NCBI GenBank assembly: GCA_028706295.1
Contig: JAQWBQ010000005.1
Location: forward strand, 11,395 to 75,394
Direction of reading: 5' to 3'
Origin: Bacteroidales bacterium
GTDB lineage: Bacteria > Bacteroidota > Bacteroidia > Bacteroidales > FEN-979
DNA length: 64,000 bases
This document shows, piece after piece, positions 26,421 through 47,890 of this stretch (position 1 is its first letter; each line of letters starts with the position of its first letter). A program made the translations under genes and the position numbers. The notes under the pieces were generated by a model. It saw only the letters and a program-made list of their open reading frames with translations, did not search any database and was not told the DNA's origin.

Positions 26421-26438
26421 TTGTTAAGTTAATCACAA
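26421..26438. promoter_or_regulatory. Rex-type operator, distal site (TTGTTAA-GTTA-ATCACAA)
   Basis: 18-bp imperfect palindrome matching the Rex consensus TTGTGAA-N4-TTCACAA (clostridial variant TTGTTAA-N4-TTAACAA). Lies in the AT-rich region upstream of hydrogenase operon 1. Confidence 0.55.
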
Positions 26439-26465: not shown

Positions 26466-26483
26466 TTGTTAATCTTTTCACAA
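26466..26483. promoter_or_regulatory. Rex-type operator, proximal site (TTGTTAA-TCTT-TTCACAA)
   Basis: One mismatch to TTGTGAA-N4-TTCACAA. Lies 54 nt upstream of the ATG at 26537. Confidence 0.65.
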
Positions 26484-26536: not shown

Positions 26537-27001
26537 ATGACTGAATGCCAATCATTAATCAGGGAATTAGCAGACAAATACGGCCGTGAACGAGCCAGCC
26601 TGCTGCCCATCCTGCAGGGAGTGGTTGAAAGGGATAATTTTCTTTCCGATACCTGTATGACTGATATAGCGAAAGAGTTGGATATCTCTGCTGCTCAGGT
26701 TTACGGTACTGCAACATTTTACTCCTTCCTCGAGACTCAGCCCAGGGGTGAGTATGTGATCCGTGTTTGCAAAACCATCACCTGCGATATGCATGGAAAA
26801 AAACAGATCGTCCAGACCCTGGAAGATATGTTGAAAATCAAGGTCGGAGAAACGACCCCGAACAAAAAATTCACCCTGCTCGAAACCAATTGCCTGGGAT
26901 GGTGCCATGAAGGCCCTGCCATGCTGATCAACGAAAAACCTTACAGCGGGCTTACTCCTGAAAAGGTACATGATATCATCAGTGAATATATCAACAAATA
27001 A
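26537..27001 (+). CDS. hydC: NuoE/HydC-like [2Fe-2S] subunit (hydrogenase operon 1)
   Basis: 154 aa. Cys pattern VCKTITC ... NCLGWC, typical of the 24-kDa NuoE/HndA family. Confidence 0.85.
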   Translation: MTECQSLIRELADKYGRERASLLPILQGVVERDNFLSDTCMTDIAKELDISAAQVYGTATFYSFLETQPRGEYVIRVCKTITCDMHGKKQIVQTLEDMLKIKVGETTPNKKFTLLETNCLGWCHEGPAMLINEKPYSGLTPEKVHDIISEYINK

Positions 27002-27025
27002 TCCATAGAAATAGGAGAATAAGTC

Positions 27026-28192: not shown

Positions 28193-28225
28193 TCCAGTAT
28201 TAACAAGTTAATTAAGATTCTTTAT

Positions 28226-30019
28226 ATGGCTAAACAAATAAATCTGACGATCGACGGTATCGCCATCACAGTGGATGAAGGTACAACCATCCTCGAAGCC
28301 GCCCGCAAACTCAACATACACATCCCGACCCTCTGCTACCATGAAGATCTCTGTGTAGCCGGAAATTGCCGCGTATGTGTTGTTGAACAGGAAAAGGTAA
28401 AAAACCTCCCTGCATCATGCGCCATGCCGGTTTCTGAAGGAATGGTGATCCATACCAACAGCATGAAAGTTAGGCTTGCCCGGAAACACATCGTTGAATT
28501 GCTCCTTTCCGAACATAACGCCGACTGTACCAAATGTTACAAAAACGGGAACTGTGAGCTTCAGGGACTCGCCTCACAAATGCTCACCGGCGACCACCTT
28601 TTCCTCGATCTGGTACCCGAGAAAAATTACACCATCGACATGTTCAACACCGCCATCATTAAAGATGACAGCCGTTGCATCCGTTGTCAAAGATGTGTCC
28701 GCACCTGCGAAGAACTCCAGAGTGTAAGTGCACTCGGAGTGGCATACAAAGGTGATAAAATGAAAATTTCTACCTTCTTTGAACATTCGCTGTTTGAAGT
28801 CGTTTGCACCAACTGCGGACAGTGTGTGAACCGGTGCCCGACCGGAGCCCTCATCGAACGGAACTATATTGATCAGGTTTGGGACGCCATTTATGATCCG
28901 GGCAAACATGTCGTGGTACAAACCGCCCCCGCCGTCCGGGTAGCCCTTGGAGAAGCCCTGGGCTTGCCTCACGGAAAGATCGTTACCGGAAAAATGGTTG
29001 CAGCCCTTCGCAGACTGGGATTTTCTTCGGTACTCGACACCGACTTCACAGCAGACCTCACCATTATTGAAGAAGGCCACGAATTGCTGACCCGGCTGAA
29101 AAAAGCCCTGGTCGACAAAGATCCCACGGTTGCCCTCCCGATGGCTACTTCCTGCTCCCCGGGATGGATCAAGTTCATTGAACATACATTCCCTGAATAT
29201 CTGCCCAACCTGTCTACCTGTAAATCACCACAACAGATGTTCGGTGCACTGGCAAAAACCTACTACGCCCAAAAACGCAAACTCGATCCGCGTAATGTTG
29301 TGTCTGTTTCCATCATGCCTTGCACAGCCAAAAAGTTTGAGGCAAACCGACCCGAAATGCGCTCCAGCGGATTTAAGGATGTCGATTATGTACTCACAAC
29401 CCGTGAACTGGCCATCATGATCAAACAGGCCGGACTCGAATTTGACGAATTACCCGAAGAAAAATACGACAGTTTCATGGGTGCCTCCACCGGAGCAGCT
29501 GTTATCTTCGGATCCACCGGCGGTGTTATGGAAGCAGCCTTACGTACTGCGTATGAAATCGTAACCGGCAGGGAAGTACCATTCGATGGACTGAATATTA
29601 TCCCGGTCCGCGGAACAGAAGGTGAAGTCAGGGAAGCAACCATAAAAATCGAAAAAGTAAAACCTGAATGGAGCTTTCTCGAAGGTGTTGAACTGAAATG
29701 CGCGGTTGCAAACGGCTTGGCCCATGCCAAAACCGTTATGCAAAACGTTAAAGACGGTAAAGTCAATTACCACTTCATCGAAATTATGGCATGTCCGGGC
29801 GGATGTCTTGGCGGCGGGGGACAACCGATCCCTACCAGTCCCGAGATCAGATCGAAACGGAAGATGGCCATCTACCAGGAAGATATGGGAATGCCAATCC
29901 GTAAATCGCACGAAAATCCTGAGATTGCAGAGATCTATAAAGAATTCCTTGAGAAACCACTCGGACATAAATCTCACGAACTCCTGCACACCCATTATAC
30001 TCCGCGCAAGAGATATTAA
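28226..30019 (+). CDS. hydA: [FeFe]-hydrogenase catalytic subunit, M3 architecture, with a non-canonical L1 motif TSCSPGW
   Basis: 597 aa. N-terminal 2Fe-2S (CYHEDLCVAGNCRVC), HNADCTKCYKNGNCELQ, CIRCQRCVRTC and CTNCGQCVNRCP. H-cluster motifs are TSCSPGW (29147-29167), MPCTAKKFE and EIMACPGGCLGGGGQP. Confidence 0.9.
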   Translation: MAKQINLTIDGIAITVDEGTTILEAARKLNIHIPTLCYHEDLCVAGNCRVCVVEQEKVKNLPASCAMPVSEGMVIHTNSMKVRLARKHIVELLLSEHNADCTKCYKNGNCELQGLASQMLTGDHLFLDLVPEKNYTIDMFNTAIIKDDSRCIRCQRCVRTCEELQSVSALGVAYKGDKMKISTFFEHSLFEVVCTNCGQCVNRCPTGALIERNYIDQVWDAIYDPGKHVVVQTAPAVRVALGEALGLPHGKIVTGKMVAALRRLGFSSVLDTDFTADLTIIEEGHELLTRLKKALVDKDPTVALPMATSCSPGWIKFIEHTFPEYLPNLSTCKSPQQMFGALAKTYYAQKRKLDPRNVVSVSIMPCTAKKFEANRPEMRSSGFKDVDYVLTTRELAIMIKQAGLEFDELPEEKYDSFMGASTGAAVIFGSTGGVMEAALRTAYEIVTGREVPFDGLNIIPVRGTEGEVREATIKIEKVKPEWSFLEGVELKCAVANGLAHAKTVMQNVKDGKVNYHFIEIMACPGGCLGGGGQPIPTSPEIRSKRKMAIYQEDMGMPIRKSHENPEIAEIYKEFLEKPLGHKSHELLHTHYTPRKRY

Positions 30020-31053: not shown

Positions 31054-31188
31054 GAGGTCCTCCTGTGTTTTAAATGATGTCGCAAATCTAAACTGTCTAA
31101 GCAGTTGAAAATGTTAATGTATCGTTAAATTCAGTTAAGGAATCGTTAATCTTGATGATTGGGGAACTCCTTTATTTACTTTTGTACC

Positions 31189-33069
31189 ATGAATAAGAAA
31201 TTGCTATACATTTTGATCCTTTGCATCTGCATATCCCTTGTGGGGATCATCATTGTCCAGTTCTTTTGGATCCGGAACGCATTCCAGGTCAAGGAAGCCC
31301 AATTTAACCGAAGTGTTAACGATGCCCTTGGAGATGTTGTCAATAAGATAGAGACCAGGGAAAACATGCACTTCATCAGCCGCAATTATGAAGGCGACAG
31401 CATCATGAGTATCGTTCAGGCTTTTTCAAAAGATTCATCCATTACCATCAAAGCCCGCCTTGACTCACTGCTCGCATTGAATGAACTACCAGAAACACAT
31501 TCTTTACCAAAACACCGTTCTGAACGTGCATTCCGCCGCCCGCTCGCACCGGGCGTTCTCCATTACTCCTACCAGTATAACGTGATCCCTGTCCTGGAAG
31601 GTCTCGACTCGCTGACAATAAGGATGGAACAGGTTTATGAAGAAATGCATCAGATTGAACCTGATGCATACAGTTTTGAATGGAAAGATCAGGTAAGCAA
31701 ACTTGATTCCATGATAGAAATCAACGAACGGAATCGGGGACTGGCATTTCAGGAGAAGGAGTGGGAATCCGACCAGGCAGGCAACAAAACCATTATTTTA
31801 ACAACACCAGGGTACCGGCGATCACGGAATATCCAGCATCCGATCTCCCCAAATCCATCTCCTCCTACCCCAATGAGCAGGATGAAAGTAAACCGTGAAA
31901 AATTCCAATACCGCGAAAATAACATTCAGAAGCTGGACAATAAGGCAAAAAAAATCCAGGATGTTATTAAAAAAATGGCTATCGAATTAGAAACCAAACC
32001 AGCACCAATCCAGCAACGGATTAACAAAAAAACGCTCCAGGCTTCTTTGAGCAAATCGTTAATTGATAAAGGAATCGATCTTCCGTTTGAATTTGCCGTG
32101 TATTCTCCAACAAACGACAGCAATCATATTCCGATCCGGTCGGCCGGATTTATTGAACCCGGAACGATCTCCGATCATAAAGTTTCCCTATTCCCCAACG
32201 ATTTATTCAAAAAGCCTGATTTGCTCGTTATCCGCTTCCCCGGACAGAAAACTCATGTTCTGAAATCTTTGTCTTTGCTGCTTGCAGGTTCTGTCCTCTT
32301 TACGCTGATCATCATTCTCTCCTCCGGTGCAAGCATCGTGGTAATGATCCGGCAAAAGAAAATTTCGGATATTAAAACCGATTTCATAAACAACATGACC
32401 CATGAGTTTAAAACTCCCATAGCGACTATTTCCATCGCTGCTGATTCGATCAATAATCCAAGGGTACTGTCGGAACCGGATACTATTAAAAATTTCACAA
32501 GGATCATAAAGGAAGAGAACAACCGGATGAACACACGGGTAGAACAGGTCCTTCAGATGGCGTTATTGGACAGTCGTGACTTCAAACTCCGACTTGTACT
32601 TGTTGATCTGAATGAACTAATCGAAAGGGTAACCGATCATTTCAGGTTGCAGGTAGAAAAACGTGAGGGAAAGATCATTACTGATCTGAGGGCCGAAAAC
32701 CCCATGGTACTTGCAGATGAAGATCATATGAGAAATGTGCTCCTCAACCTTCTCGACAATGCCAACAAATATTCCATCATCAAACCACAGATCACCGTTA
32801 CTTCCTTTAACCGATCCGGAAAATATTTTTTCTCTGTTCAGGATAGAGGGTTAGGCATGAGTGCAGATACACAGCGGAAAATCTTTGATAAATTCTACCG
32901 GGTTACATCCGGAAACATACATAATATTAAAGGATTCGGTCTGGGATTAAGTTATGTCAGGGCAATTGTCCTGGCACACAAAGGTGAAATCCAACTGCAG
33001 AGCGAATTCGGGAAAGGAAGCAAATTCGAAATAAGTATGGTCAATGCTCAAACAAATCAGAATGAATAA
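31189..33069 (+). CDS. Sensor histidine kinase (membrane-bound, large N-terminal sensor region)
   Basis: H-box FINNMTHEFKTPIATI, N-box LLNLLDNANKY, G-boxes DRGLGM and GFGLGLSYV. ATG at 31189 is preferred over TTG at 31159. Confidence 0.85.
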   Translation: MNKKLLYILILCICISLVGIIIVQFFWIRNAFQVKEAQFNRSVNDALGDVVNKIETRENMHFISRNYEGDSIMSIVQAFSKDSSITIKARLDSLLALNELPETHSLPKHRSERAFRRPLAPGVLHYSYQYNVIPVLEGLDSLTIRMEQVYEEMHQIEPDAYSFEWKDQVSKLDSMIEINERNRGLAFQEKEWESDQAGNKTIILTTPGYRRSRNIQHPISPNPSPPTPMSRMKVNREKFQYRENNIQKLDNKAKKIQDVIKKMAIELETKPAPIQQRINKKTLQASLSKSLIDKGIDLPFEFAVYSPTNDSNHIPIRSAGFIEPGTISDHKVSLFPNDLFKKPDLLVIRFPGQKTHVLKSLSLLLAGSVLFTLIIILSSGASIVVMIRQKKISDIKTDFINNMTHEFKTPIATISIAADSINNPRVLSEPDTIKNFTRIIKEENNRMNTRVEQVLQMALLDSRDFKLRLVLVDLNELIERVTDHFRLQVEKREGKIITDLRAENPMVLADEDHMRNVLLNLLDNANKYSIIKPQITVTSFNRSGKYFFSVQDRGLGMSADTQRKIFDKFYRVTSGNIHNIKGFGLGLSYVRAIVLAHKGEIQLQSEFGKGSKFEISMVNAQTNQNE

Positions 33070-33760
33070 AAAAATCAAAATACTGCTGGTCGAAGACGAC
33101 CCCAATTTTGGATCTATAATGAAATCTTACCTGGAGCTCAACGATTTCTCAGTCGTTTTAAAATCGGATGGTAAACAGGGATTATCAACATTTAAATCCG
33201 AAGCCTTCGATATCTGCATCCTTGATGTTATGATGCCAGAAATGGACGGTTTTACTTTGGCTAAAGAGATTAAGAAAACCAACAGCCCGGTCCCTTTCAT
33301 CTTTCTTACGGCGAAATCACTGAAAGAGGATATGCTGGAAGGCTTCAGAACGGGAGCCGATGATTATATAACCAAACCATTCGATTCGGAGGTCCTGCTC
33401 TTTAAACTTCATGCCATCCTGAAAAGAAATCTCAAATCACCCAACAACGAAAATGAACCGAGTGAGATCATGGTGGGAAAATTGAAATTCAACATTCCAT
33501 TACGGACACTTTCCTTCGAAAAAGAGACCTTTCAACTTTCGCCCAAAGAAGCGAACCTGCTGAAAATGCTTTGTTCCGCCAAAGATGGAATTCTGCTGCG
33601 CAAAGATGCCTTGGAACAGATATGGGGGGCTGATAACTACTTCAATGGCAGAAGTATGGATGTATTCATCGCCAGGCTCAGGAAGTACCTGAAAACCGAT
33701 CCCTGTATTGAAATTGCGAACATCCATGGAAATGGATTTCGATTAGTTATCCAGAAATAA
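33062..33760 (+). CDS. OmpR-family DNA-binding response regulator
   Basis: REC domain (ILLVEDD...ILDVMMPEMDG...LTAK) plus a winged-helix output (LSPKEANLLKML...FIARLRKYL). The ATG overlaps the kinase stop by 8 nt. Confidence 0.85.
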   Translation: MNKKIKILLVEDDPNFGSIMKSYLELNDFSVVLKSDGKQGLSTFKSEAFDICILDVMMPEMDGFTLAKEIKKTNSPVPFIFLTAKSLKEDMLEGFRTGADDYITKPFDSEVLLFKLHAILKRNLKSPNNENEPSEIMVGKLKFNIPLRTLSFEKETFQLSPKEANLLKMLCSAKDGILLRKDALEQIWGADNYFNGRSMDVFIARLRKYLKTDPCIEIANIHGNGFRLVIQK

Positions 33761-33782: not shown

Positions 33783-33800
33783 TTGTTAAATAAATAACAA
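33783..33800. promoter_or_regulatory. 18-bp palindrome TTGTTAA-ATAA-ATAACAA (degenerate Rex-like site)
   Basis: Perfect TTGTTA-N6-TAACAA inverted repeat. One mismatch to the clostridial Rex variant TTGTTAA-N4-TTAACAA. Lies about 30 nt upstream of a -7 box. Confidence 0.4.
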
Positions 33801-33866: not shown

Positions 33867-34232
33867 ATGGCAGCAACGAACAACCTGGTTAACTTAGAAA
33901 AAATAGCGCAGCTCCTCGATGGCCAGATCATTACCGACGCCGGAAATCCCGACCGGATCATTGAGGGGGCCTTTGCTTCTGACCTCATGAGCGATGTTCT
34001 CACACTCCCGACTAAACATTTGTTGTTATTGACAGGCCTGGTCAACATCCAGGCGATCAGGACGGCCGAAATGTCAGACATCGATTGTATCGTATTTGTC
34101 AGAAATAAAAAAGTAACAGTCGAAATGACCAACCTGGCTAATGAAACCGGGATTGCAATAATCCACAGTCCTTTTTCCATGTATAAAGCCAGCGGCATTT
34201 TATACCAGGCTGGAATCAAACCCGTTTATTGA
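33867..34232 (+). CDS. DRTGG domain protein (copy 1)
   Basis: 121 aa. ...GAFASDLMSDVL...LLLLTGL... pattern typical of small DRTGG proteins found in Firmicutes/Thermotogae hydrogenase operons. Confidence 0.7.
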   Translation: MAATNNLVNLEKIAQLLDGQIITDAGNPDRIIEGAFASDLMSDVLTLPTKHLLLLTGLVNIQAIRTAEMSDIDCIVFVRNKKVTVEMTNLANETGIAIIHSPFSMYKASGILYQAGIKPVY

Positions 34233-34239
34233 TCCGCTC

Positions 34240-34662
34240 ATGCATTTTGAATACCATGTTGAAGGGGGAAATTTTTCTCAGGCCGGTTTTACCTCCAGTC
34301 AGGTTAAAAAAACACTGAAACAACTGAATGTCGATGGTGATGTGATCAGGCGAACGGTAATAGCGCTCTATGAAGCTGAAGTGAACATTGTGGCTCATGC
34401 TTACAAGGGTAAAATCGCCGTTGATATCGATCCTGAAAAAATCAGCATTTTATTAGACGATGAAGGACCGGGGATTCCCGATATTCAAAAGGCGATGGAA
34501 GTGGGTTATTCCACAGCCACTCCACAGGTCAGGGAGATGGGATTTGGGGCCGGGATGGGACTTTCGAACATGAAAAATAATTCCGACCGGCTCGATATCG
34601 ACAGTGTGGTCGGAAAAGGAACAAGAGTCATGATCATCAACTATTTCAACCCAACAAGATGA
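34240..34662 (+). CDS. GHKL-type ATPase / RsbW-SpoIIAB-like serine kinase (copy 1)
   Basis: 140 aa. EAEVNIVAHAY (N-box-like), DDEGPGIPD (G1), GFGAGMGLSNM (G2). No HisKA domain. Confidence 0.7.
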   Translation: MHFEYHVEGGNFSQAGFTSSQVKKTLKQLNVDGDVIRRTVIALYEAEVNIVAHAYKGKIAVDIDPEKISILLDDEGPGIPDIQKAMEVGYSTATPQVREMGFGAGMGLSNMKNNSDRLDIDSVVGKGTRVMIINYFNPTR

Positions 34663-36056
34663 CACAGGTTACCGGGTCTCATTTTCAACATGCACTTCAA
34701 TTCAGGGAAGATACCTGCATCGGATGCTCCCATTGCATGAATGTTTGTCCTACCGAAGCAATCCGTGTTTCATCGGGAAAAGCAAGACTTATACCTAACC
34801 GGTGTATCGATTGCGGAGAATGTTACCGCGTTTGTCCGGTTCGTGCCATCGTAGTGGAACAAGACGATTTTGAAGAGATTTACCGTTACCCTACACGTGT
34901 TGCACTAATCCCCGGCGTTTTCACTGGTCAGTTTCCCGACAGCGTCGGACCCGAACAGATAATCAGCGCCATTTATGAACTTGGATTTACCCATGTTGCC
35001 GAAGTCGAAGAAGGAGTAGAATTTCTCTGTAATCAAAGTAATAATTACATTGGAACCAACCGGGAAACCGCTCCTCTTATTTCATCATTCTGTCCGGCCA
35101 TCGTACGACTGATCCAGGTTAAGTTTCCCTCTCTCACCGGCAACATTATCCGGCTGAAGGCCCCTCTCGATATAACTGCCCTGACAATCCGGTATAATCT
35201 TTCAAAACAGGGTATCCCTCCCGAAGATATCGGAATCTTTTACGTTACCCCCTGTGCCGCAAAAATTGTGGCCGTGAAAAACCCCGTCGGCGAAGAACAT
35301 TCGGCCATTGACGGCGTACTCAACATGAATTTTGTTTACAATAAGGTTTTCCGGATACTCCGCCAAAAAAAAGGTACATCCGTCAACCTTCCTGACTCAG
35401 GGCTGACATCGCGTGCGGTGACCTGGAGCCTGACCCATGGCGAAGCCGACCATATGATGGCAGGGCGCAGCCTGGCAATCGATCAGATAAACAATGTAAT
35501 TGAATTCCTCGAAAAGATCGAAAATGAGGAAATCAGTGGGGTTGGATTCCTTGAACTACGAGCCTGCGACGAAAGCTGTGCAGGCGGAATCCTTTGCCCC
35601 GGTAATCGATTCCTTACAGTCGACAGACTGCGAAAGCGAGCCAGGGCGTTATCCGCTGTAAAACCGATATCAAACCATCGGGAGGAGCATTACCCGCAGG
35701 GTCTCTTTACCCATCTTCAGAATAATATGGAATTAGGTAAAATCCAGCCCAGGTCAATGATGAAACTTGATGATCAGGTGATGCAGGCCATGATTAAGAT
35801 GAAACGGATTTATGAGTTGAACAGCGTGTTGCCACAGGTTGATTGCGGAATTTGCGGATCACCTTCCTGCAAAGCATTGTCGGAGGATATCGTTCAGCAC
35901 AATGCCCACCTCCGTCAATGTATCTTTGTACAGCGGATTCTTGAACAAAATGATCAAATGGATCCGGCCGAGTCAATGAAAATCATGGCCGGCATCTGGA
36001 GTGACCAGAAACTGGATAAAAACAAATTAAAGGATAAAATCAATGATGTTTCATAA
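34659..36056 (+). CDS. HydS-like [FeFe]-hydrogenase-domain protein (S1): 2x[4Fe-4S] ferredoxin, degenerate H-domain and C-terminal 4-Cys domain, with no output domain
   Basis: 465 aa. CIGCSHCMNVCP and CIDCGECYRVCP. L1 is SSFCPAIV (35082-35096), L2 is VTPCAAK, L3 is ACDESCAGG (35565-35588). C-terminal CGICGSPSC...C. ATGA overlap with the upstream gene. Confidence 0.8.
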   Translation: MTQVTGSHFQHALQFREDTCIGCSHCMNVCPTEAIRVSSGKARLIPNRCIDCGECYRVCPVRAIVVEQDDFEEIYRYPTRVALIPGVFTGQFPDSVGPEQIISAIYELGFTHVAEVEEGVEFLCNQSNNYIGTNRETAPLISSFCPAIVRLIQVKFPSLTGNIIRLKAPLDITALTIRYNLSKQGIPPEDIGIFYVTPCAAKIVAVKNPVGEEHSAIDGVLNMNFVYNKVFRILRQKKGTSVNLPDSGLTSRAVTWSLTHGEADHMMAGRSLAIDQINNVIEFLEKIENEEISGVGFLELRACDESCAGGILCPGNRFLTVDRLRKRARALSAVKPISNHREEHYPQGLFTHLQNNMELGKIQPRSMMKLDDQVMQAMIKMKRIYELNSVLPQVDCGICGSPSCKALSEDIVQHNAHLRQCIFVQRILEQNDQMDPAESMKIMAGIWSDQKLDKNKLKDKINDVS

Positions 36057-36417
36057 AATCCATCCCGATATGAACCTGGCAGAACTTGTTGAAAAGCTTA
36101 ATTTATCAATTTTTTCGGGTAAGGAAGCATTGTCAAAGCCTGTTACAGGCGGTTATACTTCCGACCTTCTCAGTGATGTAATGGGGCATGCCGGACCCGG
36201 ACAGGTATGGATAACCCTTCAAACCCATAAGAATGTCGTTGCAATAGCATCACTTAAAGAATTATCGGCCATTATCCTTGTCAAAGGATATAAACCCGAC
36301 GATGAGATGCTTAGTCAAAGCATAGCGGAACGGATTCCGGTTTTAGGAACGACTCTTGAGACATTTGAAATAACCGGTCGTGTATTTATGTTGTTAAACA
36401 GAGATAATTCCGACTGA
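36043..36417 (+). CDS. DRTGG domain protein (copy 2)
   Basis: 124 aa. ...GGYTSDLLSDVMGH...ASLKELSAIILV... The start overlaps the end of S1. Alternative Met at 36070. Confidence 0.7.
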   Translation: MMFHKIHPDMNLAELVEKLNLSIFSGKEALSKPVTGGYTSDLLSDVMGHAGPGQVWITLQTHKNVVAIASLKELSAIILVKGYKPDDEMLSQSIAERIPVLGTTLETFEITGRVFMLLNRDNSD

Positions 36418-36470
36418 TTCCATTTCTGAGTGTTTACTGATTCATTGTATTGAAAAGCTATTTCGCACGA

Positions 36471-37220
36471 ATGAAATCGTTTATCGGTGATCTTCATATA
36501 CATACCGTTTTATCACCCTGCGGCGACCTTGAGATGAGCCCCGATAACATTATTCGTCGTGCGGCAGATTTGAATCTCGACATTATCGGCATTACCGACC
36601 ATAATAGCACCCGGCAATGTAACCTGATCAGACAAATGGGCGAGGATGCAGGTATTCTTGTTTTATGCGGTGCCGAGGTCACCTCACGCGAAGAGGTACA
36701 TTGTCTGACCTATTTTGAAACGCCTGCCCAGCTTGAAGAATTTCAGCATTATCTCGATCAGAACCTTCCGGATATCCCAAACGATCCGCGATTGTTCGGC
36801 CACCAGGTTGTGGTCGACGACATGAACAACATCATTTACACCGAAGAACGCTCCCTTCTCATGGCATTAACTCAGCGTCTGGATGAGATTGCATCTTGTG
36901 TGAGGCAATTACAAGGATTGTTCATTCCCGCCCATATCGACAGGCCAAGGTTCGGTATTTTAGGACAACTTGGATTTTTTCCGCAGGAATTGATGGTGGA
37001 TGCAGTAGAACTTTCGCCGAATTCAAATCAGGAAAGCCTTCGGGCATTGTTCCCGGATATTTTTAAGCATTCCTTTATAGGAGGATCGGATGCACATTTT
37101 CTCCACCATATGGGAACATGGAAAACCGTTTTTCGGATGCGGGAACCCAGTTTTGCCGAAATCCGTCGATGCTTGCACCGAAAGGCAGGACGCAGCGCTG
37201 TCATCGACACCTTAACCTGA
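36471..37220 (+). CDS. PHP-domain metal-dependent phosphoesterase
   Basis: GDLHIHTVLSPCGD, ITDHNS and GGSDAH motifs. ATG at 36471 is preferred over TTG at 36450. Confidence 0.75.
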   Translation: MKSFIGDLHIHTVLSPCGDLEMSPDNIIRRAADLNLDIIGITDHNSTRQCNLIRQMGEDAGILVLCGAEVTSREEVHCLTYFETPAQLEEFQHYLDQNLPDIPNDPRLFGHQVVVDDMNNIIYTEERSLLMALTQRLDEIASCVRQLQGLFIPAHIDRPRFGILGQLGFFPQELMVDAVELSPNSNQESLRALFPDIFKHSFIGGSDAHFLHHMGTWKTVFRMREPSFAEIRRCLHRKAGRSAVIDTLT

Positions 37221-37393
37221 TTCGGCTGTGTGTGATAAAAATATCATTTAAATCGGATTATTCAGAATATTTTTTTATCTTTAACAATTCCTTTAGCAAG
37301 AGCGCAACACCACCGTGTCGCCCTCTAGTCGCAAAAGGAAACAAAGATAAATGACAAAGCAAAACACTGTTTTATAAATTTTTAAGATACTTT

Positions 37394-37411
37394 TTGTGAA
37401 TTTTTTCACAA
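37394..37411. promoter_or_regulatory. Perfect Rex operator TTGTGAA-TTTT-TTCACAA
   Basis: Exact match to the 18-bp Rex consensus palindrome. Lies about 28 nt upstream of a TATCTTTG -7 box (37439-37446), i.e. around the -33 region of the operon 2 promoter. Confidence 0.75.
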
Positions 37412-37448
37412 AGTGAATAAAATAACAATAAAGTTTTTTATCTTTGCA

Positions 37449-37994
37449 ATGAAAAATTTATCAATGCATATTATGGACATCCTTCAGAATTCGATCCGGG
37501 CAGGTGCGACCGAAATATCGCTTGAGATCAGGGAGGATACGCTGCTGAACTTACTCCGGTTTAATATCAGCGATAACGGATGTGGTATGGCGCCGGATGT
37601 ATTGAAGAAGGTAACCGATCCGTTTTTCACGACGCGGACAACGCGTAAGGTCGGTTTGGGATTGTCGCTGTTAAGGCAAAACGCGGAGCGGTCGAATGGT
37701 TCTTTGAAAATCGATTCGGAAACCGGGAAAGGCACAGTGGTGGAAGCCTGTTTTGAATATAATCATATCGACCGGCCGGTGTTGGGCGACATTGCGGGCA
37801 CAGTTCTCCTGACGCTGACAGCGCACCCGGAAATCCAATTCCGCTACCTTCATAACAGGAATGGCCGATCTTTTGAATTATCCACCATCGCGTTGAAGGA
37901 TGCATTGTGCGGAATTCCGATCAATGAACCGGCGCTCTATCCCACCCTGCTTCAGATGGTGAAAGAGAACCTGAAAGATATTGATGTTAATTGA
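37449..37994 (+). CDS. GHKL-type ATPase (copy 2), no HisKA domain
   Basis: DILQNSIRAG (N-box), SDNGCGM (G1), KVGLGLSLL (G2), GKGT. The start is uncertain: GTG 37413, ATG 37449 or ATG 37464. Confidence 0.7.
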   Translation: MKNLSMHIMDILQNSIRAGATEISLEIREDTLLNLLRFNISDNGCGMAPDVLKKVTDPFFTTRTTRKVGLGLSLLRQNAERSNGSLKIDSETGKGTVVEACFEYNHIDRPVLGDIAGTVLLTLTAHPEIQFRYLHNRNGRSFELSTIALKDALCGIPINEPALYPTLLQMVKENLKDIDVN

Positions 37995-38017
37995 ATTTAT
38001 ACAACATACTGATTTTT

Positions 38018-38413
38018 ATGGAAAAAATAAAATCATTGGCCGACTTAAGGAAGATGCAGGATGATCTTCGGGCAAAAATTTCCCTGAGAGAAAAGAGCAA
38101 CGAACCCGATAAACGGATACAGGTGAAAGTAGCCATGGCTACCTGTGGAATTGCTTCAGGGGCAAAAGAAGTCATGGAAGCGTTTATCGAAGAATTTACC
38201 AAACGAAACATCGATGCCGTGGTCACACAAACCGGTTGTATGGGTTACTGCTATGCTGAGCCTACCGTTGAAATAACCAAGCCGGGAGTGGAACCTATTA
38301 CATTTGGATATGTCGATGTAAAAAAAGCCAGCAAGATTATTGACAAATATATTTTGAACAACGAGCTGGTCGATGGGATCATTCCGGTAAATTACCATTC
38401 AATTGATAATTGA
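38018..38413 (+). CDS. Small thioredoxin-like ferredoxin-fold protein (HndB/HydD-like)
   Basis: 131 aa. ATCG...TGCMGYC, so only three Cys are visible. It sits before the NuoF-like gene, as in Hnd/Hyd operons. Confidence 0.65.
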   Translation: MEKIKSLADLRKMQDDLRAKISLREKSNEPDKRIQVKVAMATCGIASGAKEVMEAFIEEFTKRNIDAVVTQTGCMGYCYAEPTVEITKPGVEPITFGYVDVKKASKIIDKYILNNELVDGIIPVNYHSIDN

Positions 38414-38431: not shown

Positions 38432-40225
38432 ATGACACAGATCAAGTACCACATGTTGGTTTGCGGCGGAACAGGTTGCCACGCATCCCAGAGCGATCAG
38501 ATCCTGAAGGTGTTTCAGGAACAGATCATCGCCCATGGCCTCGACACGGAAGTGCAGGTTATTAAAACCGGTTGTTTCGGTTTCTGTGAAAAAGGGCCGA
38601 TCGTCAAGATGATGCCCGATAACACGTTTTACACTCAGGTAACGCCAGCCGATTGTTCGGAGATTTTGGAAGAACATATCATCAAGGGAAGGCGGGTTAA
38701 TCGTTTGTTGTATGAAAATCCTGAAACCGGTGAAAAGGTCAGTGATTCCAAGCACATGGGATTTTATAAAAAGCAGATCCGCATCGCTTTACGTAATTGC
38801 GGATTTATCAATCCTGAGAACATCGATGAATATATCGCCCGTGATGGTTATATGGCGCTGGGCAAGGTTCTTACAGAGCTAACACCGGAAGCCACCATCG
38901 AAATTATCAAAAAATCAGGATTAAGGGGGCGTGGCGGTGGAGGATTCCCGACCGGTTTAAAGTGGGAAATCACGCGTGCTGTGAAAGCCGATCAGAAATA
39001 TGTAGTCTGCAATGCCGATGAAGGCGACCCGGGAGCATTTATGGACCGGTCGGTGCTTGAAGGCGATCCGCATACGGTACTGGAAGCAATGGCTATTAAC
39101 GGATATTGCACAGGTGCCGACAAGGGATTGATCTATATCCGGGCCGAATATCCGCTTGCCGTGGAACGGCTGAAGATCGCCATGAAACAGGCGCAGGAAT
39201 ATGGTTTACTCGGGAAAAATATTCTGGGAACCGATTTTTCATTTGACATCGATATCCGTTATGGCGCGGGAGCCTTCGTTTGCGGTGAAGAGACGGCTCT
39301 GATCCATTCGATGGAAGGGTTACGCGGCGAACCTACCGTGAAGCCCCCATTCCCCTCCGAATCCGGTTACATGGGCAAGCCTTCCAACGTCAACAACGTT
39401 GAGACCTATGCCAATATCCCGGTTATCCTTAACAAAGGTGCAGCATGGTTTGCCGCCATAGGAACCGAAAAATCGAAAGGCACCAAGGTGTTTGCATTAG
39501 CCGGGAAGATCAATAACGTAGGACTCATTGAAGTTCCGATGGGCATTACGCTCCGTGAAGTGATCTATGAAATCGGCGGTGGCATCAAAGGAGGGAAAAA
39601 ATTCAAATCGGTACAAACCGGCGGACCTTCAGGTGGCTGCCTTACAGAGCGACATCTGGATACGCCGATCGATTATGATAACCTGCTTGCAGCAGGGTCG
39701 ATGATGGGTTCGGGAGGAATGATTGTGATGGACGAGGATGATTGCGCCGTTGGAATGGCCAAATTCTATCTCGACTTCACGGTCGAAGAATCCTGTGGAA
39801 AATGCTCACCCTGCAGAATTGGGAACAAGCGGTTATATGAGATCCTGGAAAAGATCACCCAGGGTAACGGAACTATTGAAGATCTTGATAAACTGAGAAA
39901 CCTCAGCCATGTCATTAAGGACACCTCTCTGTGTGGTTTAGGACAGACTTCGCCAAATCCGGTACTTTCGACCCTGGATAATTTTTATGACGAATATCTG
40001 GAACATGTAACCAGTAAAAAATGTCGCGCCGGAAATTGTAAATCGCTGATGCAGTACATGATCATTTCGGAAAATTGTATCGGTTGTACGCTTTGCGCAA
40101 GAAACTGTCCGGTTAATGCCATTACCGGTGAGCGTAAGCAACCGCATCTGATTGACCAGGATAAATGTATCAAATGCGGCGCCTGTATGGAAAAATGTAA
40201 ATTCAACGCTATTTTTATCAATTAA
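38432..40225 (+). CDS. hydB: Full-length HydB/NuoF-like subunit (N-terminal 2Fe-2S, FMN/NADH, [4Fe-4S], C-terminal 2x[4Fe-4S])
   Basis: 597 aa. VCGGTGC...GCFGFC, GLRGRGGGGFPTG, GAFVCGEETAL, CGKCSPCR, CIGCTLCARNCP, CIKCGACMEKC. Confidence 0.9.
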   Translation: MTQIKYHMLVCGGTGCHASQSDQILKVFQEQIIAHGLDTEVQVIKTGCFGFCEKGPIVKMMPDNTFYTQVTPADCSEILEEHIIKGRRVNRLLYENPETGEKVSDSKHMGFYKKQIRIALRNCGFINPENIDEYIARDGYMALGKVLTELTPEATIEIIKKSGLRGRGGGGFPTGLKWEITRAVKADQKYVVCNADEGDPGAFMDRSVLEGDPHTVLEAMAINGYCTGADKGLIYIRAEYPLAVERLKIAMKQAQEYGLLGKNILGTDFSFDIDIRYGAGAFVCGEETALIHSMEGLRGEPTVKPPFPSESGYMGKPSNVNNVETYANIPVILNKGAAWFAAIGTEKSKGTKVFALAGKINNVGLIEVPMGITLREVIYEIGGGIKGGKKFKSVQTGGPSGGCLTERHLDTPIDYDNLLAAGSMMGSGGMIVMDEDDCAVGMAKFYLDFTVEESCGKCSPCRIGNKRLYEILEKITQGNGTIEDLDKLRNLSHVIKDTSLCGLGQTSPNPVLSTLDNFYDEYLEHVTSKKCRAGNCKSLMQYMIISENCIGCTLCARNCPVNAITGERKQPHLIDQDKCIKCGACMEKCKFNAIFIN

Positions 40226-40238
40226 TCAGGAGGAAAAG

Positions 40239-42011
40239 ATGGAAATGGTTAAGTTGACTATTGACGGGAAAGCCGTTGAAGTCGAAAAAAACACCACGAT
40301 ATTAATGGCAGCCAGAACTGCCGGCATTGAAATCCCAACCCTTTGCTATTTTCAATTAAAGGATATGGAGATTGAAAACCGTCCGGGCGGGTGCCGTATT
40401 TGCGTAGTTGAGGTCTCCGGCCGGCGAAACCTTGCGCCTGCATGTACCACTACAGTAACACCGGGGATGGTTGTGAACACCCATTCCATAAGGGTATTGA
40501 ACGCACGGCGCACCGTATTGGAACTGATCCTTTCCGATCATCCTGCCGAGTGTCTGACTTGTGCCAAATCGGGAAATTGCGAGTTGCAGGATATGGCTCA
40601 AAAGCTTGGAGTACGTGAAATTCCTTTCCAGGGAGCCCAGTCAACTTATCGAAAAGACACCTCCCCTGCCATCATTCGTGATGTGGACAAATGCATCATG
40701 TGCCGCCGATGTGAAATGATGTGTAATGAGGTGCAAACCGTGGGTGCGCTCTCTGCAGTTAACCGGGGATTTATGGCTGTAGTTGCGCCGGCATTCGAAA
40801 TGAACCTTGAAAAATCACCCTGTACCTATTGCGGACAGTGCGTGTCGGTTTGTCCTACCGGGGCACTGACTGAGGTTGACCATTCACGCAATGTTATCAA
40901 TGCACTTGCCGATCCCACAAAAACCGTTGTCGTTCAGACCGCCCCTGCCGTCAGAGCTGCTCTGGGTGAAGAATTCGGACTTGCTCCCGGAACCCTGGTA
41001 ACCGGCAAAATGGTTGCTGCACTCAGGCGTCTTGGTTTTAATTATGTATTTGATACCGATTTCGCCGCTGACCTTACAATCATGGAGGAGGGCAGCGAAT
41101 TGCTGGATCGTCTCACCCGCCATCTGAACGGTGATAAAAATGTAAAATTACCCATTCTGACTTCGTGTTGTCCAGGCTGGGTCAATTTCTTCGAGCACAA
41201 TTTTCCGGAAATGCTTGATATTCCTTCTACTGCAAAATCACCCCAACAAATGTTCGGTCCTATTGCTAAGGAATACTTCGGAAAAAAACTGGGAATTGAC
41301 CGGCGAAACCTGATCGTGGTTTCAATCATGCCTTGCCTTGCAAAAAAATATGAATGTCAGCGGGAAGAATTCAAAGTAAACGGGGACCCGGATGTTAATT
41401 ATTCCATTTCGACCCGTGAGCTGGCTCACCTGATCAAACAAGCCAACATTGACTTTGCATCGCTGCCTGAGGAGGATTTCGACAATCCCCTGGGTGAATC
41501 GACGGGAGCAGGCGTTATTTTTGGCAACACGGGAGGAGTCATTGAGGCTGCCTGCCGCACTGCTTACGAATTATACACCGGTAAGAAGCTGGAGAAAGTT
41601 GAATTCAACGAACTTCGCGGTATGGAAAACATCCGGCATGCTACTATCGATTTTAACGGATTACCTATTAATATTGGAATAGCACATGGTTTGGGGAATG
41701 CGCGCAAACTTCTTGAAGACATTCAGGCCGGGAAGAGTCATTTTCATGCCATTGAGATCATGGCCTGTCCGGGTGGTTGCATCGGCGGCGGCGGACAACC
41801 TTACCACCACGGCGATTCATCAATCCTGAAGGCAAGAGCCGCGGCCATTTATCGGGAAGATGCCGGGAAGCCGATCCGTAAATCGCATGAGAATCCCTTT
41901 ATCATTGAACTCTATAAAGAATTCCTCGAAAAACCATTGGGTGAAAAATCACATCATCTGCTTCACACCCACTATTTCGATAAGAGTGCAGGAGTTTTTG
42001 TAGAAGAGTAG
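40239..42011 (+). CDS. hydA: [FeFe]-hydrogenase catalytic subunit (canonical motifs)
   Basis: 590 aa from the ATG preceded by GGAGGA. TSCCPGW (41160-41180), MPCLAKKYE, EIMACPGGCIGGGGQP, plus N-terminal 2Fe-2S and three 4Fe-4S motifs. Confidence 0.9.
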   Translation: MEMVKLTIDGKAVEVEKNTTILMAARTAGIEIPTLCYFQLKDMEIENRPGGCRICVVEVSGRRNLAPACTTTVTPGMVVNTHSIRVLNARRTVLELILSDHPAECLTCAKSGNCELQDMAQKLGVREIPFQGAQSTYRKDTSPAIIRDVDKCIMCRRCEMMCNEVQTVGALSAVNRGFMAVVAPAFEMNLEKSPCTYCGQCVSVCPTGALTEVDHSRNVINALADPTKTVVVQTAPAVRAALGEEFGLAPGTLVTGKMVAALRRLGFNYVFDTDFAADLTIMEEGSELLDRLTRHLNGDKNVKLPILTSCCPGWVNFFEHNFPEMLDIPSTAKSPQQMFGPIAKEYFGKKLGIDRRNLIVVSIMPCLAKKYECQREEFKVNGDPDVNYSISTRELAHLIKQANIDFASLPEEDFDNPLGESTGAGVIFGNTGGVIEAACRTAYELYTGKKLEKVEFNELRGMENIRHATIDFNGLPINIGIAHGLGNARKLLEDIQAGKSHFHAIEIMACPGGCIGGGGQPYHHGDSSILKARAAAIYREDAGKPIRKSHENPFIIELYKEFLEKPLGEKSHHLLHTHYFDKSAGVFVEE

Positions 42012-42121
42012 GAAGGGAATGTAAAAATCAACATGCAAAATGCAAAATTCAAATCACCCATTCACTCAGTCATTCAATCAATCAGTCATTCAGTCAATCA
42101 GTAAGTCAATCGTTTAGTCAA
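42012..42121. repeat. G-poor short-period repeat spacer between hydA and hydC (operon 2)
   Basis: aaaatgcaaaatgcaaaattcaaat followed by cattcactcagtcattcaatcaatcagtcattcagtcaatcagtaagtcaatc. Same motif family as 22574-22810 and 24312-24440. Confidence 0.8.
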
Positions 42122-42598
42122 ATGGCAAAGATAAAATTATCCGACAGAAAAGTCCAGGAATTGAAGGATGTATGCAAATCCTTCAACAACGACAAAGGAG
42201 AACTGATCAACGTACTACACAAAGCACAGGGAATTTTCGGGTACCTGCCAGCTGAGGTTCAGGAAGTTGTCGCACATGAGCTTCAGGTCTCTGTTGCCCA
42301 TGTTTACGGGGTCGTGACCTTCTATTCTTTCTTTACGATGACCCCTAAGGGTGAACACCCCATCTCCATTTGTCTTGGGACAGCCTGTTATGTAAGGGGC
42401 GCTGAAAAGGTGCTTGATGAATTTAAACGGGTACTGAACATTCAGGTTGGAGAAACCACTGCCGATGGAAAGTTTTCGCTAAGCTGTCTCCGGTGTGTTG
42501 GAGCCTGCGGACTGGCTCCTGTCGTGATGGTGGGTGAAAAAGTATATGGGCGCGTTTCTCCCGACGGTGTGAAAGACATTGTCGCTGAATATAATTAG
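42122..42598 (+). CDS. hydC: NuoE/HydC-like [2Fe-2S] subunit (operon 2)
   Basis: 158 aa. CLGTAC ... CLRCVGAC Cys pattern. Confidence 0.85.
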   Translation: MAKIKLSDRKVQELKDVCKSFNNDKGELINVLHKAQGIFGYLPAEVQEVVAHELQVSVAHVYGVVTFYSFFTMTPKGEHPISICLGTACYVRGAEKVLDEFKRVLNIQVGETTADGKFSLSCLRCVGACGLAPVVMVGEKVYGRVSPDGVKDIVAEYN

Positions 42599-42624: not shown

Positions 42625-42659
42625 CTGCCGGGTGAAATCCATCCGGCAGATTTTTTTTT
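42625..42659 (+). terminator. Rho-independent terminator after operon 2
   Basis: Stem ctgccgg/ccggcag (42625-31/42643-49) followed by T9. Confidence 0.8.
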
Positions 42660-42773: not shown

Positions 42774-43934
42774 TCATTGATTCCTGATGCATCGGACTGA
42801 GAATCCGAATTCTTTTCCTTCGGTAGCTCTTATAATGTCTTGCAAGGATGTATAAAGGGTTCTGATCCAAACCGACCATAAATTGACATTTTGAGTTGAT
42901 GTTCGAAAAAATCCATTCACATTGATTGTATAAAAATCCCCGGCCGATCCCCTGTATCCACCGGGGAGGGCTGTAAAGCCGCTGATATTGGTCGCACCCG
43001 TGTTAGGCGCCGCCCAATGGGTTAGTCCTGCTTCTTTCAGTTTTCCACCAGCAACAGATTCCCCTCCAAGGAAATCGGTCAATGTCGTCCAGTCCGTATC
43101 GGACGGGACATGCCAACCGTCAGGACAAATTCCCTGAGAACCTGAAGTGGTAACATATTGCATCATTTCATCCCACTGGTATAATCCGCCATACACATTA
43201 CAACCTGTTGTTAAATTATCATAACAGTACTTCTCAATAATTCCATTGTTCAATTGGTTTTGATAACTGTTGATCATCTGGCCCACGTTCAGGTTTTCAG
43301 CAAACCAGCATTGCGTTCCGATCTGAACAGTATTGTAAACATGGCCATCGCGCCCGTCAGTTAAAGGTTGTCCGCATGACTGGCAAGGCAGAGTTGATTG
43401 GGTCATACTGAGCACTGTTGATGATCCACAAGTATTATAAGCCCAAACGAATCTCGCATAAGAGGTTCCGCAGGACAGTCCCGATTCCGGCTTTGATGTG
43501 GCTGTTCCTAAATCGATAGCAGTGCCAAAGTCGTTGGCGGTATTCCATTTGTATCCTGTGGCCCCCGCAACCGGATTCCAGTTCCATATAATCTGTGTTT
43601 CGAGCGGGGTATTTGTCGCCGCAACAGGTGGCCATGGAAGTATGCAGCTTGCGCTCAGCGTATACCATCCGTTACTTAAAAAGACAACGATTGCGCCAGC
43701 TCCGGATATCCCGCAATCGGTACAGAACACCAGAAGCCCTTGGGCCGGGCTGGAAATGTTTTGAAGTTGTGAATAGGTCATCCGTGGCGGGAGAAAGCCT
43801 TTAATGTCAGTCTTAACATCGAGCATAGCAGAAGGGTCAGGCTGACTGTTATCGGCATTTATACCCACCTGGGCCATGACGATGTTGACCCTGCAAGATA
43901 CCAACAGGGCCAGTATTAAAATCATTCGATTCAT
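42774..43934 (-). CDS. Secreted FISUMP (Fibrobacter succinogenes major paralogous) domain protein with an N-terminal Fn3-like region
   Basis: 386 aa. DGRDGHVYNTVQIGTQCWFAENLN...YGGLYQW...CPDGWHVPSDTDWTTL...AGGKLKE...GFSVRCI. Confidence 0.8.
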   Translation of the reverse strand: MNRMILILALLVSCRVNIVMAQVGINADNSQPDPSAMLDVKTDIKGFLPPRMTYSQLQNISSPAQGLLVFCTDCGISGAGAIVVFLSNGWYTLSASCILPWPPVAATNTPLETQIIWNWNPVAGATGYKWNTANDFGTAIDLGTATSKPESGLSCGTSYARFVWAYNTCGSSTVLSMTQSTLPCQSCGQPLTDGRDGHVYNTVQIGTQCWFAENLNVGQMINSYQNQLNNGIIEKYCYDNLTTGCNVYGGLYQWDEMMQYVTTSGSQGICPDGWHVPSDTDWTTLTDFLGGESVAGGKLKEAGLTHWAAPNTGATNISGFTALPGGYRGSAGDFYTINVNGFFRTSTQNVNLWSVWIRTLYTSLQDIIRATEGKEFGFSVRCIRNQ

Positions 43935-47322: not shown

Positions 47323-47357
47323 TTGTTTATTTTTTCACATTGATAATTTTTTCACAA
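47323..47357. promoter_or_regulatory. Two abutting Rex-like operators in the divergent S2 / operon 3 control region
   Basis: 47323-47340 is TTGTTTA-TTTT-TTCACAT. 47340-47357 is TTGATAA-TTTT-TTCACAA. Each has an intact or near-intact TTCACA(A) half-site. Confidence 0.55.
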
Positions 47358-47387: not shown

Positions 47388-47395
47388 TATTTTTG
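47388..47395 (+). promoter_or_regulatory. -7 promoter box (TATTTTTG) for hydrogenase operon 3
   Basis: Matches TAnnTTTG, 27 nt before the ATG at 47422. The Rex-like sites lie just upstream. Confidence 0.45.
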
Positions 47396-47421
47396 TGAAT
47401 CAGATACTGATATTTTGTAAT

Positions 47422-47889: not shown

Positions 47890-47890
47890 G

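Follow-up and report, generated by a model that had tools for sequence, protein, structure and literature searches.

A putative sensory [FeFe] hydrogenase of group D in a Bacteroidales genome and its candidate DRTGG and GHKL partners

Gene organization of the cassette

We analyzed a 64,000-nucleotide (nt) stretch of DNA from a Bacteroidales bacterium (GenBank assembly GCA_028706295.1, contig JAQWBQ010000005.1, positions 11,395 to 75,394 of the forward strand), here referred to as the window. Its central part carries a cassette in which the gene for an [FeFe] hydrogenase-like protein, S1, lies among genes for two small DRTGG proteins (DRTGG1 and DRTGG2), two GHKL ATPases (GHKL1 and GHKL2), and a PHP phosphoesterase, upstream of the structural genes of a catalytic hydrogenase. 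The comparisons reported here point to S1 as a group D hydrogenase, with DRTGG1 and GHKL1 as its likely direct partners. An earlier note, made from the sequence alone, had proposed that the cassette responds to H2, and its gene order and domain assignments held: all seven open reading frames (ORFs) from DRTGG1 to the small ferredoxin gene (Fdx) were found on the plus strand as described (Table 1). The downstream hydB and hydA genes were present as well, but the note had left HydC out of its gene list and had overlooked the predicted Rex operator that lies within the cluster.

The likely starts of DRTGG2, PHP, GHKL2, and Fdx were set by alignment with orthologues, and all are located downstream of the longest-ORF starts. 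This bears on the two overlaps from which translational coupling had been argued. The stop codon of GHKL1 does overlap the start of S1 (ATGA at 34659); however, the 14-nt overlap at 36043 is probably an artifact of the longest-ORF choice, because orthologue alignments put the likely DRTGG2 start at 36070. PHP and GHKL2 are set apart by 228 noncoding nt (37221-37448).

Table 1. Genes and features of the cassette and of the adjoining hydrogenase operon (positions in the window; aa, amino acids)
Feature	Position	Strand	Description
DRTGG1	33867-34232	+	121 aa, stand-alone DRTGG fold; first gene of the triad
GHKL1	34240-34662	+	140 aa, SpoIIAB/RsbW-like GHKL ATPase, putative Ser kinase; HATPase_c_2 39 bits
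S1	34659-36056	+	465 aa; two Fer4, Fe_hyd_lg_C 82 bits, PF04060 "FeS" 38.5 bits
DRTGG2	36070-36417 (ORF from 36043)	+	Pfam DRTGG 27 bits; first gene of module B
PHP + PHP_C phosphoesterase	36471-37220 (ORF from 36450)	+	Pfam PHP 34 bits, PHP_C 27 bits
Predicted Rex operator TTGTGAATTTTTTCACAA	37394-37411	strandless	Inside the PHP/GHKL2 gap, 0 mismatches
GHKL2	37449-37994 (ORF from 37413)	+	181 aa, HATPase_c 65 bits, without DHp/HisKA
Small thioredoxin (Trx)-like [2Fe-2S] ferredoxin (Fdx), HydD-like	38018-38413 (ORF from 37991)	+	Weak PF01257; NCBIfam 2Fe-2S ferredoxin 36 bits
HydB, NuoF-like flavoprotein subunit	38432-40225	+	Complex1_51K, NADH_4Fe-4S, N-terminal Trx-like, C-terminal Fer4
HydA, catalytic group A [FeFe] hydrogenase	~40239-42011	+	NCBIfam "NADH-dependent [FeFe] hydrogenase, group A6" (NF040763) 904 bits against a cut-off of 765; Fe_hyd_lg_C 318 bits
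HydC, NuoE-like	42122-42598	+	PF01257 170 bits
Strong intrinsic terminator	42625-42649	3' of HydC	10-bp stem + T-run

S1 as a group D hydrogenase

Sequence comparisons of S1 covered 28 diverse family members, taken from a search across 1.8 billion cluster representatives, as well as the three HydA proteins (group A) and the other two sensor-type proteins encoded in the window. The four H-cluster Cys residues claimed for S1 were all present (C145, C199, C303, and C307, which align to C300, C355, C499, and C503 of CpI) and were invariant in 28 of 28 representatives. The same was true of the C-terminal Cys domain that the earlier note had pointed out, which has the pattern Cx2Cx4Cx16C (C396, C399, C404, and C421). 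The N-terminal cluster Cys residues are also in place (C20, C23, C26, C30 and C49, C52, C55, C59), accompanied by several Fer4 matches; seven of these eight were invariant among the representatives, and C23 varied in one sequence. At the position of the proton-relay Cys (CpI C299) S1 has Phe (F144, within SSFCP), while CpI M353 is replaced by Thr (T197, within TPC) and CpI M497 by Arg. A Pfam search found no PAS, HisKA/kinase, or DNA-binding domain in S1, in agreement with its description as a protein without such an output. One member of the representative library, P0249, is a predicted protein of 4122 aa in which part of an S1-like H-domain occurs at least seven times in tandem.

A Ser or Thr in place of M353 and the absence of PAS are among the hallmarks of the group D (M2e) enzymes (PMC8163306; PMC13104023). 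The model of the group is TamHydS of Thermoanaerobacter mathranii (PMC8163306, PMC13104023), the only member for which H-cluster binding and reactivity with H2 have been demonstrated (PMC8163306). TamHydS catalyzes reversible H+/H2 conversion; it has low turnover, high H2 affinity, no proton-relay Cys, and a stabilized Hred state, and resembles regulatory hydrogenases (PMC8163306). M2e enzymes have been viewed as putative sensors since approximately 2010 to 2012 owing to their kinase neighbors (PMC3561251), and the label "putative sensory" is already published for the family (PMC8163306, PMC13104023). Neither is the group new to Bacteroidota, since Parabacteroides and Alkaliflexus enzymes figure among the 70 that a published list assigns to group D.

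S1 and TamHydS aligned end to end with 38% identity over 419 aa (288 bits), a comparison for which the TamHydS sequence was rebuilt by hand from optical character recognition of the coding sequence in Table S1 of PMC13104023, so that single residues may be wrong. The PAS-type sensor of the window reached 26% identity to TamHydS (107 bits), and S1 shared 25% identity with the in-window group C proteins. Judged by these alignments, S1 appears closer to TamHydS than to the group C sensors. Residues R30, K35, and R42 of TamHydS correspond to R36, K41, and R48 of S1, D378/C379 to D395/C396, S384 to S401, and E392/D393 to E409/D410. The proton path E252, D265, and E289 is kept as E262, D275, and E299, and R32, K58, and D403 are lost (S38, I64, and Q420 in S1). 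An AlphaFold2 model of S1 built with 56 homologues had a predicted local distance difference test (pLDDT) score of 91.1, and its PDB matches were all [FeFe] hydrogenases; no solved group D structure was found in a PDB sequence search.

The two proteins have the same domain plan, with two [4Fe-4S] clusters, an H-domain, and the Cx2Cx4Cx16C motif without PAS. They also share the missing C299-equivalent Cys, a hydroxyl residue at the M353 position, and the Glu, Asp, Glu proton path. Both genes lie upstream of a NuoE/NuoF-type group A hydrogenase, and the genes flanking S1 match those in Firmicutes. S1 differs from TamHydS in its host, a member of Bacteroidota, in having Arg rather than Leu at the M497 position, and in a 40-aa helical C-terminal tail; moreover, HydC follows HydA in the window instead of standing between PHP and GHKL2. 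With group C (TmHydS and R. albus HydS, which are PAS linked, and HisKA-linked forms) S1 shares the H-domain without proton-relay Cys, the C-terminal four-Cys cluster (PF04060), and a genomic link with group A hydrogenases as well as with Ser/Thr phosphatases or kinases. Unlike these sensors, it is fused to neither PAS nor kinase, and its partners would be DRTGG, GHKL, and PHP proteins rather than PAS and PP2C. Collectively, the assignment of S1 to the group D (M2e), TamHydS-type putative H2-sensing [FeFe] hydrogenases is well supported by its sequence. The word "uncharacterised" in the earlier note therefore applies to the signaling partners and the mechanism but not to the S1 family, of which TamHydS has been studied biochemically.

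Conservation of the cassette across genomes

A genome scan with a nine-sequence alignment, limited to one genome per species, yielded 595 relatives, and the best 80 loci were analyzed. Gene calls in these loci are our own ORF assignments, classified with family hidden Markov models built from the proteins of the window. Of the loci, 79 extended far enough to show both genes, and in 76 of them DRTGG1 and GHKL1 stood directly 5' of S1; the three exceptions were a possible gene-calling problem, a duplicated GHKL1 match, and a permuted order (locus L066). Fifty of the loci were flanked by at least 3.5 kb upstream and at least 4.5 kb downstream. Among these, 37 had the full set DRTGG2-PHP-GHKL2-Fdx-HydB and onward, nine had the triad only, amid unrelated genes (e.g., L008, L031, and L036), two had Fdx-HydB directly 3' of S1 without the intervening block, one had DRTGG2 and PHP only, and one was the permuted locus. 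DRTGG2, PHP, and GHKL2 were present together or absent together in 48 of the 50, and in three further loci (L026, L029, and L035) the DRTGG2-PHP-GHKL2 block was found upstream of the triad. The cassette consists accordingly of an obligate core, DRTGG1-GHKL1-S1 (module A), and an optional unit, DRTGG2-PHP-GHKL2 (module B), to which the hydrogenase structural genes (module C) can be added.

Of the 80 loci, 78 were labeled Bacteroidota, mostly Bacteroidales, and the other two come from a Sediminispirochaeta and a Desulfoluna metagenome-assembled genome (MAG). In the Sediminispirochaeta MAG (L031, 9112-11332) the triad has only unrelated genes of opposite orientation around it, and in the Desulfoluna MAG (L066, 10001-13189) the order is S1-DRTGG2-DRTGG1-GHKL1, without PHP or GHKL2. 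By these labels the system is also present outside Bacteroidota and Firmicutes, although both MAGs may be misbinned.

The earlier note had pointed to similar gene sets beside bifurcating hydrogenases of thermophilic Firmicutes, and this proved correct for trimeric or tetrameric [FeFe] hydrogenases. Pfam searches on called genes of Caldicoprobacter oshimai and Christensenella gave the order DRTGG, HATPase_c_2, M2e, DRTGG, PHP, HydC, HATPase_c, small protein, HydB, HydA, that is, the same ten genes as in the window with HydC moved. The published locus tags of six model Firmicutes fit the same plan (TTE0887 with TTE0892-0894, Athe_1292 with Athe_1297-1299, Cthe_0335 with Cthe_0340-0342, and others; PMC3561251). 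An arrangement that recurs in 80 loci and in Firmicutes is far from chance. No transcription or sigma factor was conserved beside the cassette in the 80 loci or the two Firmicutes loci. A literature search found no discussion of DRTGG or PHP genes in a hydrogenase or group D context, and nothing relevant on HydS together with anti-sigma factors.

Directly upstream of the cassette (31159-33760) lie the genes of a classical histidine kinase with HisKA and of a regulator of the OmpR type. This pair was considered as the output of the cassette and rejected as part of the conserved system, as a histidine kinase-like match precedes DRTGG1 only in three of the closest relatives, L001, L002, and L004.

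Natural fusions point to contact among S1, DRTGG, and GHKL1

In the best 150 cluster representatives at 50% identity, we found 11 natural fusions: eight S1::DRTGG2, two DRTGG1::S1, and one GHKL1::S1 (P0193). The fused domain was always the paralog that gene order predicts. The 607-aa GHKL1::S1 protein, for instance, occurs on contigs as long as 347 kb, and one contig of 1.5 Mb encodes an S1::DRTGG2 protein of 535 aa. Frameshift artifacts were rejected as an explanation, given the identical lengths on independent long contigs and the 11 separate 50% clusters. The fusions are real genes, because several recur at identical length on independent long contigs, and they constitute the strongest evidence here for a predicted physical contact among the three protein types. 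Together with the triad in 76 of 79 loci and the joint occurrence of module B genes in 48 of 50, they bear on the co-occurrence check proposed in the earlier note: the neighbors are strongly conserved with S1. On these grounds DRTGG1 and GHKL1 are likely direct partners of S1.

The DRTGG, GHKL, and PHP proteins

The Pfam match of DRTGG1 to the DRTGG family is weak (18.4 bits, under the 25.2 cut-off), whereas DRTGG2, at the score given in Table 1, lies over it. However, the AlphaFold2 model of DRTGG1 (pLDDT, 85.8) retrieved with Foldseek the DRTGG protein 2ioj (TM score of 0.79) and the DRTGG domain of the CBS-pyrophosphatase (CBS-PPase) 3l2b (TM score of 0.76), with the N-domain of HprK/P also among its fold neighbors. 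The predicted structure thus confirmed a DRTGG fold despite the Pfam score below cut-off. The idea that DRTGG is a disguised STAS domain was rejected, since Foldseek returned DRTGG and HprK-N folds only, and a domain search found neither a STAS nor a sigma domain in the cassette; the absence of a STAS antagonist noted earlier hence stands. An hhalign comparison identified DRTGG1 and DRTGG2 as paralogs (99.6% probability). Both keep a D-L-[LM]-S core across phyla, within the motif S38-D-L-M-S42-D-V-L in DRTGG1 and S40-D-L-L-S44-D-V-M in DRTGG2, and the Ser at S42 and S44, respectively, is invariant. Invariant across phyla in DRTGG1 are D39, S42, D43, T56, and E68. In the DRTGG1 model, S42 caps the start of a short helix preceded by a strand, and the D-L-[LM]-S motif takes this N-cap place in both paralogs.

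Some DRTGG1 orthologues (P0444, P0502, and others) also match Pfam PF07905. Public names of DRTGG1 orthologues include [quoted passage not shown] "predicted transcriptional regulator," and "serine kinase of HPr protein," which are probably misleading for 114-aa proteins without a DNA-binding or kinase domain.

The best PDB matches of GHKL1 were structures of the anti-sigma F factor SpoIIAB (1til and 1l0o; full length, E value of 4e-8), and it resembled RsbW more weakly in the same search. Its N, G1, and G2 ATP-binding boxes (YEaEVN..AHAY, D.GPGI, and GFGAGMGL) were conserved in 78 orthologues. GHKL2 corresponds to the catalytic (CA) domain of histidine kinases, and its PDB matches (e.g., 3d36) cover the CA domain only. 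A Pfam search found no DHp/HisKA domain with a phospho-accepting His in GHKL2. It also matches HATPase_c_3 of the MutL/Hsp90 type (28.8 bits). Its C-terminal region of approximately 70 aa carries a conserved H-x-D-R-x-P-x-G-D motif (residues ~105-130), for which no known-domain match was found. PHP exceeded the cut-off of its family (PF02811, 34.1 bits versus 26.4), and its metal-ligand motifs HxH, DH, E..H, H, and DxH were conserved in 60 orthologues. No informative relative of PHP was found in the PDB, the nearest structures, 3e0f and 2anu, being without assigned function.

A predicted Rex operator divides the cluster

The consensus of the Rex operator is TTGTGAAW4TTCACAA (PMC2883068), and the sequence TTGTGAATTTTTTCACAA in the PHP/GHKL2 gap matches it perfectly, 38 nt upstream of the GHKL2 ATG. 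The window contains two Rex-like sites with at most one mismatch, against 0.02 expected, and five with at most two mismatches, against 0.46 expected. Four of these five sites stand just 5' of the three hydrogenase operons, and a Rex gene is encoded in the window itself (55285-55926). The predicted operator divides the cluster into a sensor unit and a putatively Rex-controlled hydrogenase operon. The fifth site (two mismatches, at 18036) is located away from hydrogenase genes. Besides the perfect operator, Rex-like sequences with one to three mismatches are located at 26421-26438 and 26466-26483 upstream of hydrogenase set 1, at 47323-47357, where the PAS-type sensor gene and set 3 diverge, and at 33783-33800, 67 nt upstream of DRTGG1.

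The Rex-controlled hyd operons of Firmicutes provide a counterpart. In C. bescii a top-scoring Rex site was reported 39 nt upstream of Athe_1295, a unit described as "5 genes; Hyd hydrogenase system" (Athe_1295-1299; PMC6391272). By locus-tag numbering this site follows the PHP gene directly, as in the window, and precedes a unit with GHKL2 and structural genes. Most related Bacteroidales loci differ from this plan, with a Rex-like box more often found upstream of DRTGG1 (nine loci, perfect in L012) or of the neighboring hyd set (11 matches). A sigma-70 promoter scan performed no better than on shuffled sequences, as expected for Bacteroidota. The sequence TAnnTTTG at 37439-37446 was considered as a Bacteroidetes -7 element and rejected, as it ends 3 nt before the GHKL2 ATG.

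Other hydrogenases and sensors in the window

The window contains a hydrogenase island of three NuoE/NuoF/HydA-type sets (26537-30019, 38432-42598, and 47395-51564). The NuoF-like subunit of set 1 is unusually short (27026-28192, 388 aa) and lacks the N-terminal Trx-like and C-terminal Fer4 parts of the other two. Directly after HydA of set 3, positions 51564-53546 encode a sensor-type [FeFe] hydrogenase fused to HisKA and HATPase_c, a true histidine kinase, followed by a stand-alone receiver (53654-54055), a receiver-HisKA-HATPase hybrid (54161-55294), and the Rex gene. Judged by their domains, the fused sensor, the receiver, and the hybrid make up a complete His-Asp relay in the same window as the output-less group D protein. 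A third sensor-type hydrogenase is encoded on the minus strand (45357-47252; 631 aa); it has a long PAS-like C-terminal region without a Pfam PAS match at an E value of 1e-4. A SpoIIE/PP2C phosphatase gene (44070-45254, minus strand) follows it, and the pair is divergent from set 3; no accompanying kinase gene was found.

In the small ferredoxin encoded 5' of HydB, only three Cys residues (ATCG... and GCMGYC) were conserved in 54 orthologues, against four (CGGTGC...GCFGFC) in the homologous domain at the N terminus of HydB. The cluster ligation of the ferredoxin may therefore be unusual. A Fib_succ_major-domain protein is encoded directly beyond the hyd terminator (42774-43934, minus strand).

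A proposed relay and its alternatives

Known signaling systems offer two points of comparison. In the partner-switching modules SpoIIAA-SpoIIAB-SpoIIE and RsbV-RsbW-RsbU, as in the cassette, the gene of a small, Ser-kinase-like GHKL protein directly follows that of a small alpha/beta protein and precedes that of a presumed binding partner, and a metal-dependent phosphoesterase is encoded nearby. The cassette differs from them in having DRTGG instead of STAS, PHP instead of PP2C, and no sigma factor. In the HoxBC-HoxJ-HoxA system of Cupriavidus necator, a slow regulatory [NiFe] hydrogenase that binds H2 signals via an associated kinase-type protein to control catabolic hydrogenases. HoxJ, a histidine kinase that contains a PAS domain, is paired with a cognate response regulator. 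The likeness to the cassette is one of concept only, as metal site and protein family are unrelated and the cassette has neither such a kinase nor a response regulator.

We lean, with some reserve, towards an ATP-dependent relay that resembles a partner switch and runs from S1 via the DRTGG and GHKL proteins. S1 would bind an H-cluster and three [4Fe-4S] clusters and react slowly with H2, as TamHydS does, and because it has no output domain, it would act through a complex with DRTGG1 and the SpoIIAB-like ATPase/kinase GHKL1. An H2-dependent state of S1 would alter the binding of GHKL1 to, or its action on, a DRTGG protein, which would take the place of the STAS antagonist, possibly by phosphorylation of S42 (DRTGG1) or S44 (DRTGG2). 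Module B would add a second GHKL-DRTGG pair, GHKL2 and DRTGG2, with PHP as the reset enzyme. The output would be mainly post-translational, acting on the hydrogenase itself or on the flow of electrons to it, while Rex would set transcription according to NADH/NAD+. Such an output seems more likely than dedicated transcriptional control, given that the cassette conserves no transcription factor and that the hyd operon has a predicted Rex operator of its own. The wider claim of a new type of relay built on a group D hydrogenase, with DRTGG in the role of STAS and PHP in that of PP2C, through which H2 would exert post-translational, Rex-independent control of an NADH-linked/bifurcating hydrogenase, is speculative and in our view rather doubtful.

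Several observations weigh against the relay. GHKL1 scored below the curated cut-offs for both SpoIIAB (TIGR01925, 63.1 versus 135) and RsbW (NF003144, 28.5 versus 145). The Foldseek results do not make DRTGG a homologue of STAS, and we know of no DRTGG protein that is phosphorylated. The nearest PDB relatives of PHP have no assigned protein-phosphatase role, and the substrate of PHP could be a nucleotide instead of a protein. Part of the synteny is shared ancestry, because 78 of the 80 loci are labeled Bacteroidota, and the support from other phyla consists of few loci and of published locus-tag spacing. Finally, the C-terminal cluster of TamHydS keeps its redox state under H2 (PMC13104023), and since TamHydS is catalytically competent, a metabolic role is possible.

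In the alternative that survives best, S1 is itself the regulated target or a redox sensor rather than an H2 sensor: a slow hydrogenase or sensor of the ferredoxin level. The ATP-dependent GHKL, DRTGG, and PHP proteins would gate its activity or its electron transfer to HydABC and would in turn report the energy or nucleotide status of the cell. DRTGG domains occur in nucleotide-regulated CBS-pyrophosphatases and in Pta, and the closest folds to DRTGG1 were the regulatory region of a CBS-PPase and the HprK/P N-domain. The GHKL1 gene precedes S1 as SpoIIAB precedes sigma-F, the target that it binds, the triad can occur away from HydABC genes, and TamHydS catalyzes its reaction reversibly (PMC8163306). 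Against this reading stand the low turnover and high H2 affinity; these, the missing proton-relay Cys, and the stabilized Hred state recall regulatory hydrogenases (PMC8163306). The family also has relatives in the group C sensors linked to PAS or HisKA, and both kinds occur in the window. We regard this alternative as unlikely.

Still less probable is a transcriptional H2 pathway, in which GHKL1 would be a true anti-sigma factor, or the kinase of a distant regulator (AraC type in Thermoanaerobacter, or a sigma factor), and H2 would switch hyd transcription. The similarity of GHKL1 to anti-sigma F and RsbW fits this proposal, as do the AraC regulator that adjoins TamHydS (Land et al.) and the published work on R. 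albus and T. saccharolyticus that ties group C sensors to transcript changes. Nevertheless, neither the 80 loci nor the two Firmicutes loci conserve a transcription or sigma factor beside the cassette, the upstream histidine kinase/OmpR pair is confined to the three closest relatives, and the hyd operon already has a perfect predicted Rex operator.

A role of the small proteins in assembly, maturation, or protection of the hydrogenase instead of signaling, for example with the GHKL proteins as chaperone-like clamps or PHP as a nucleotide phosphoesterase, is very improbable: the place of GHKL2 among the structural genes of Firmicutes, between HydC and HydD, its MutL/Hsp90-type match, and its lack of a DHp domain agree with such a role, but HydABC/HydABCD enzymes have been purified and their structures solved (PDB 7p5h, 8a6t, and 7q4w) from preparations that presumably lacked the small proteins of the cassette, hydrogenase sets 1 and 3 of the window do without them, and in two loci Fdx-HydB follows S1 directly without module B.

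Implications

The cassette is a rediscovery, in a new host genome, of a known but mechanistically unsolved group D system, and the predictions of partners are what our analysis adds. A 2026 study of TamHydS called the finding of interaction partners critical. The candidates can now be named: DRTGG1 and GHKL1 as obligate partners and DRTGG2, PHP, and GHKL2 as optional ones, with the invariant Ser as a target for mutation and the natural fusion proteins as material to which structural work could turn directly. Fermenters of gut, rumen, and sediment commonly carry group D hydrogenases, of which our search returned thousands of sequences; their genes also adjoin the main H2-evolving hydrogenases of model cellulolytic thermophiles. 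A sensor set apart from Rex-dependent transcription would matter for the engineering of H2 and ethanol yields, as well as for H2 cross-feeding in gut and rumen.

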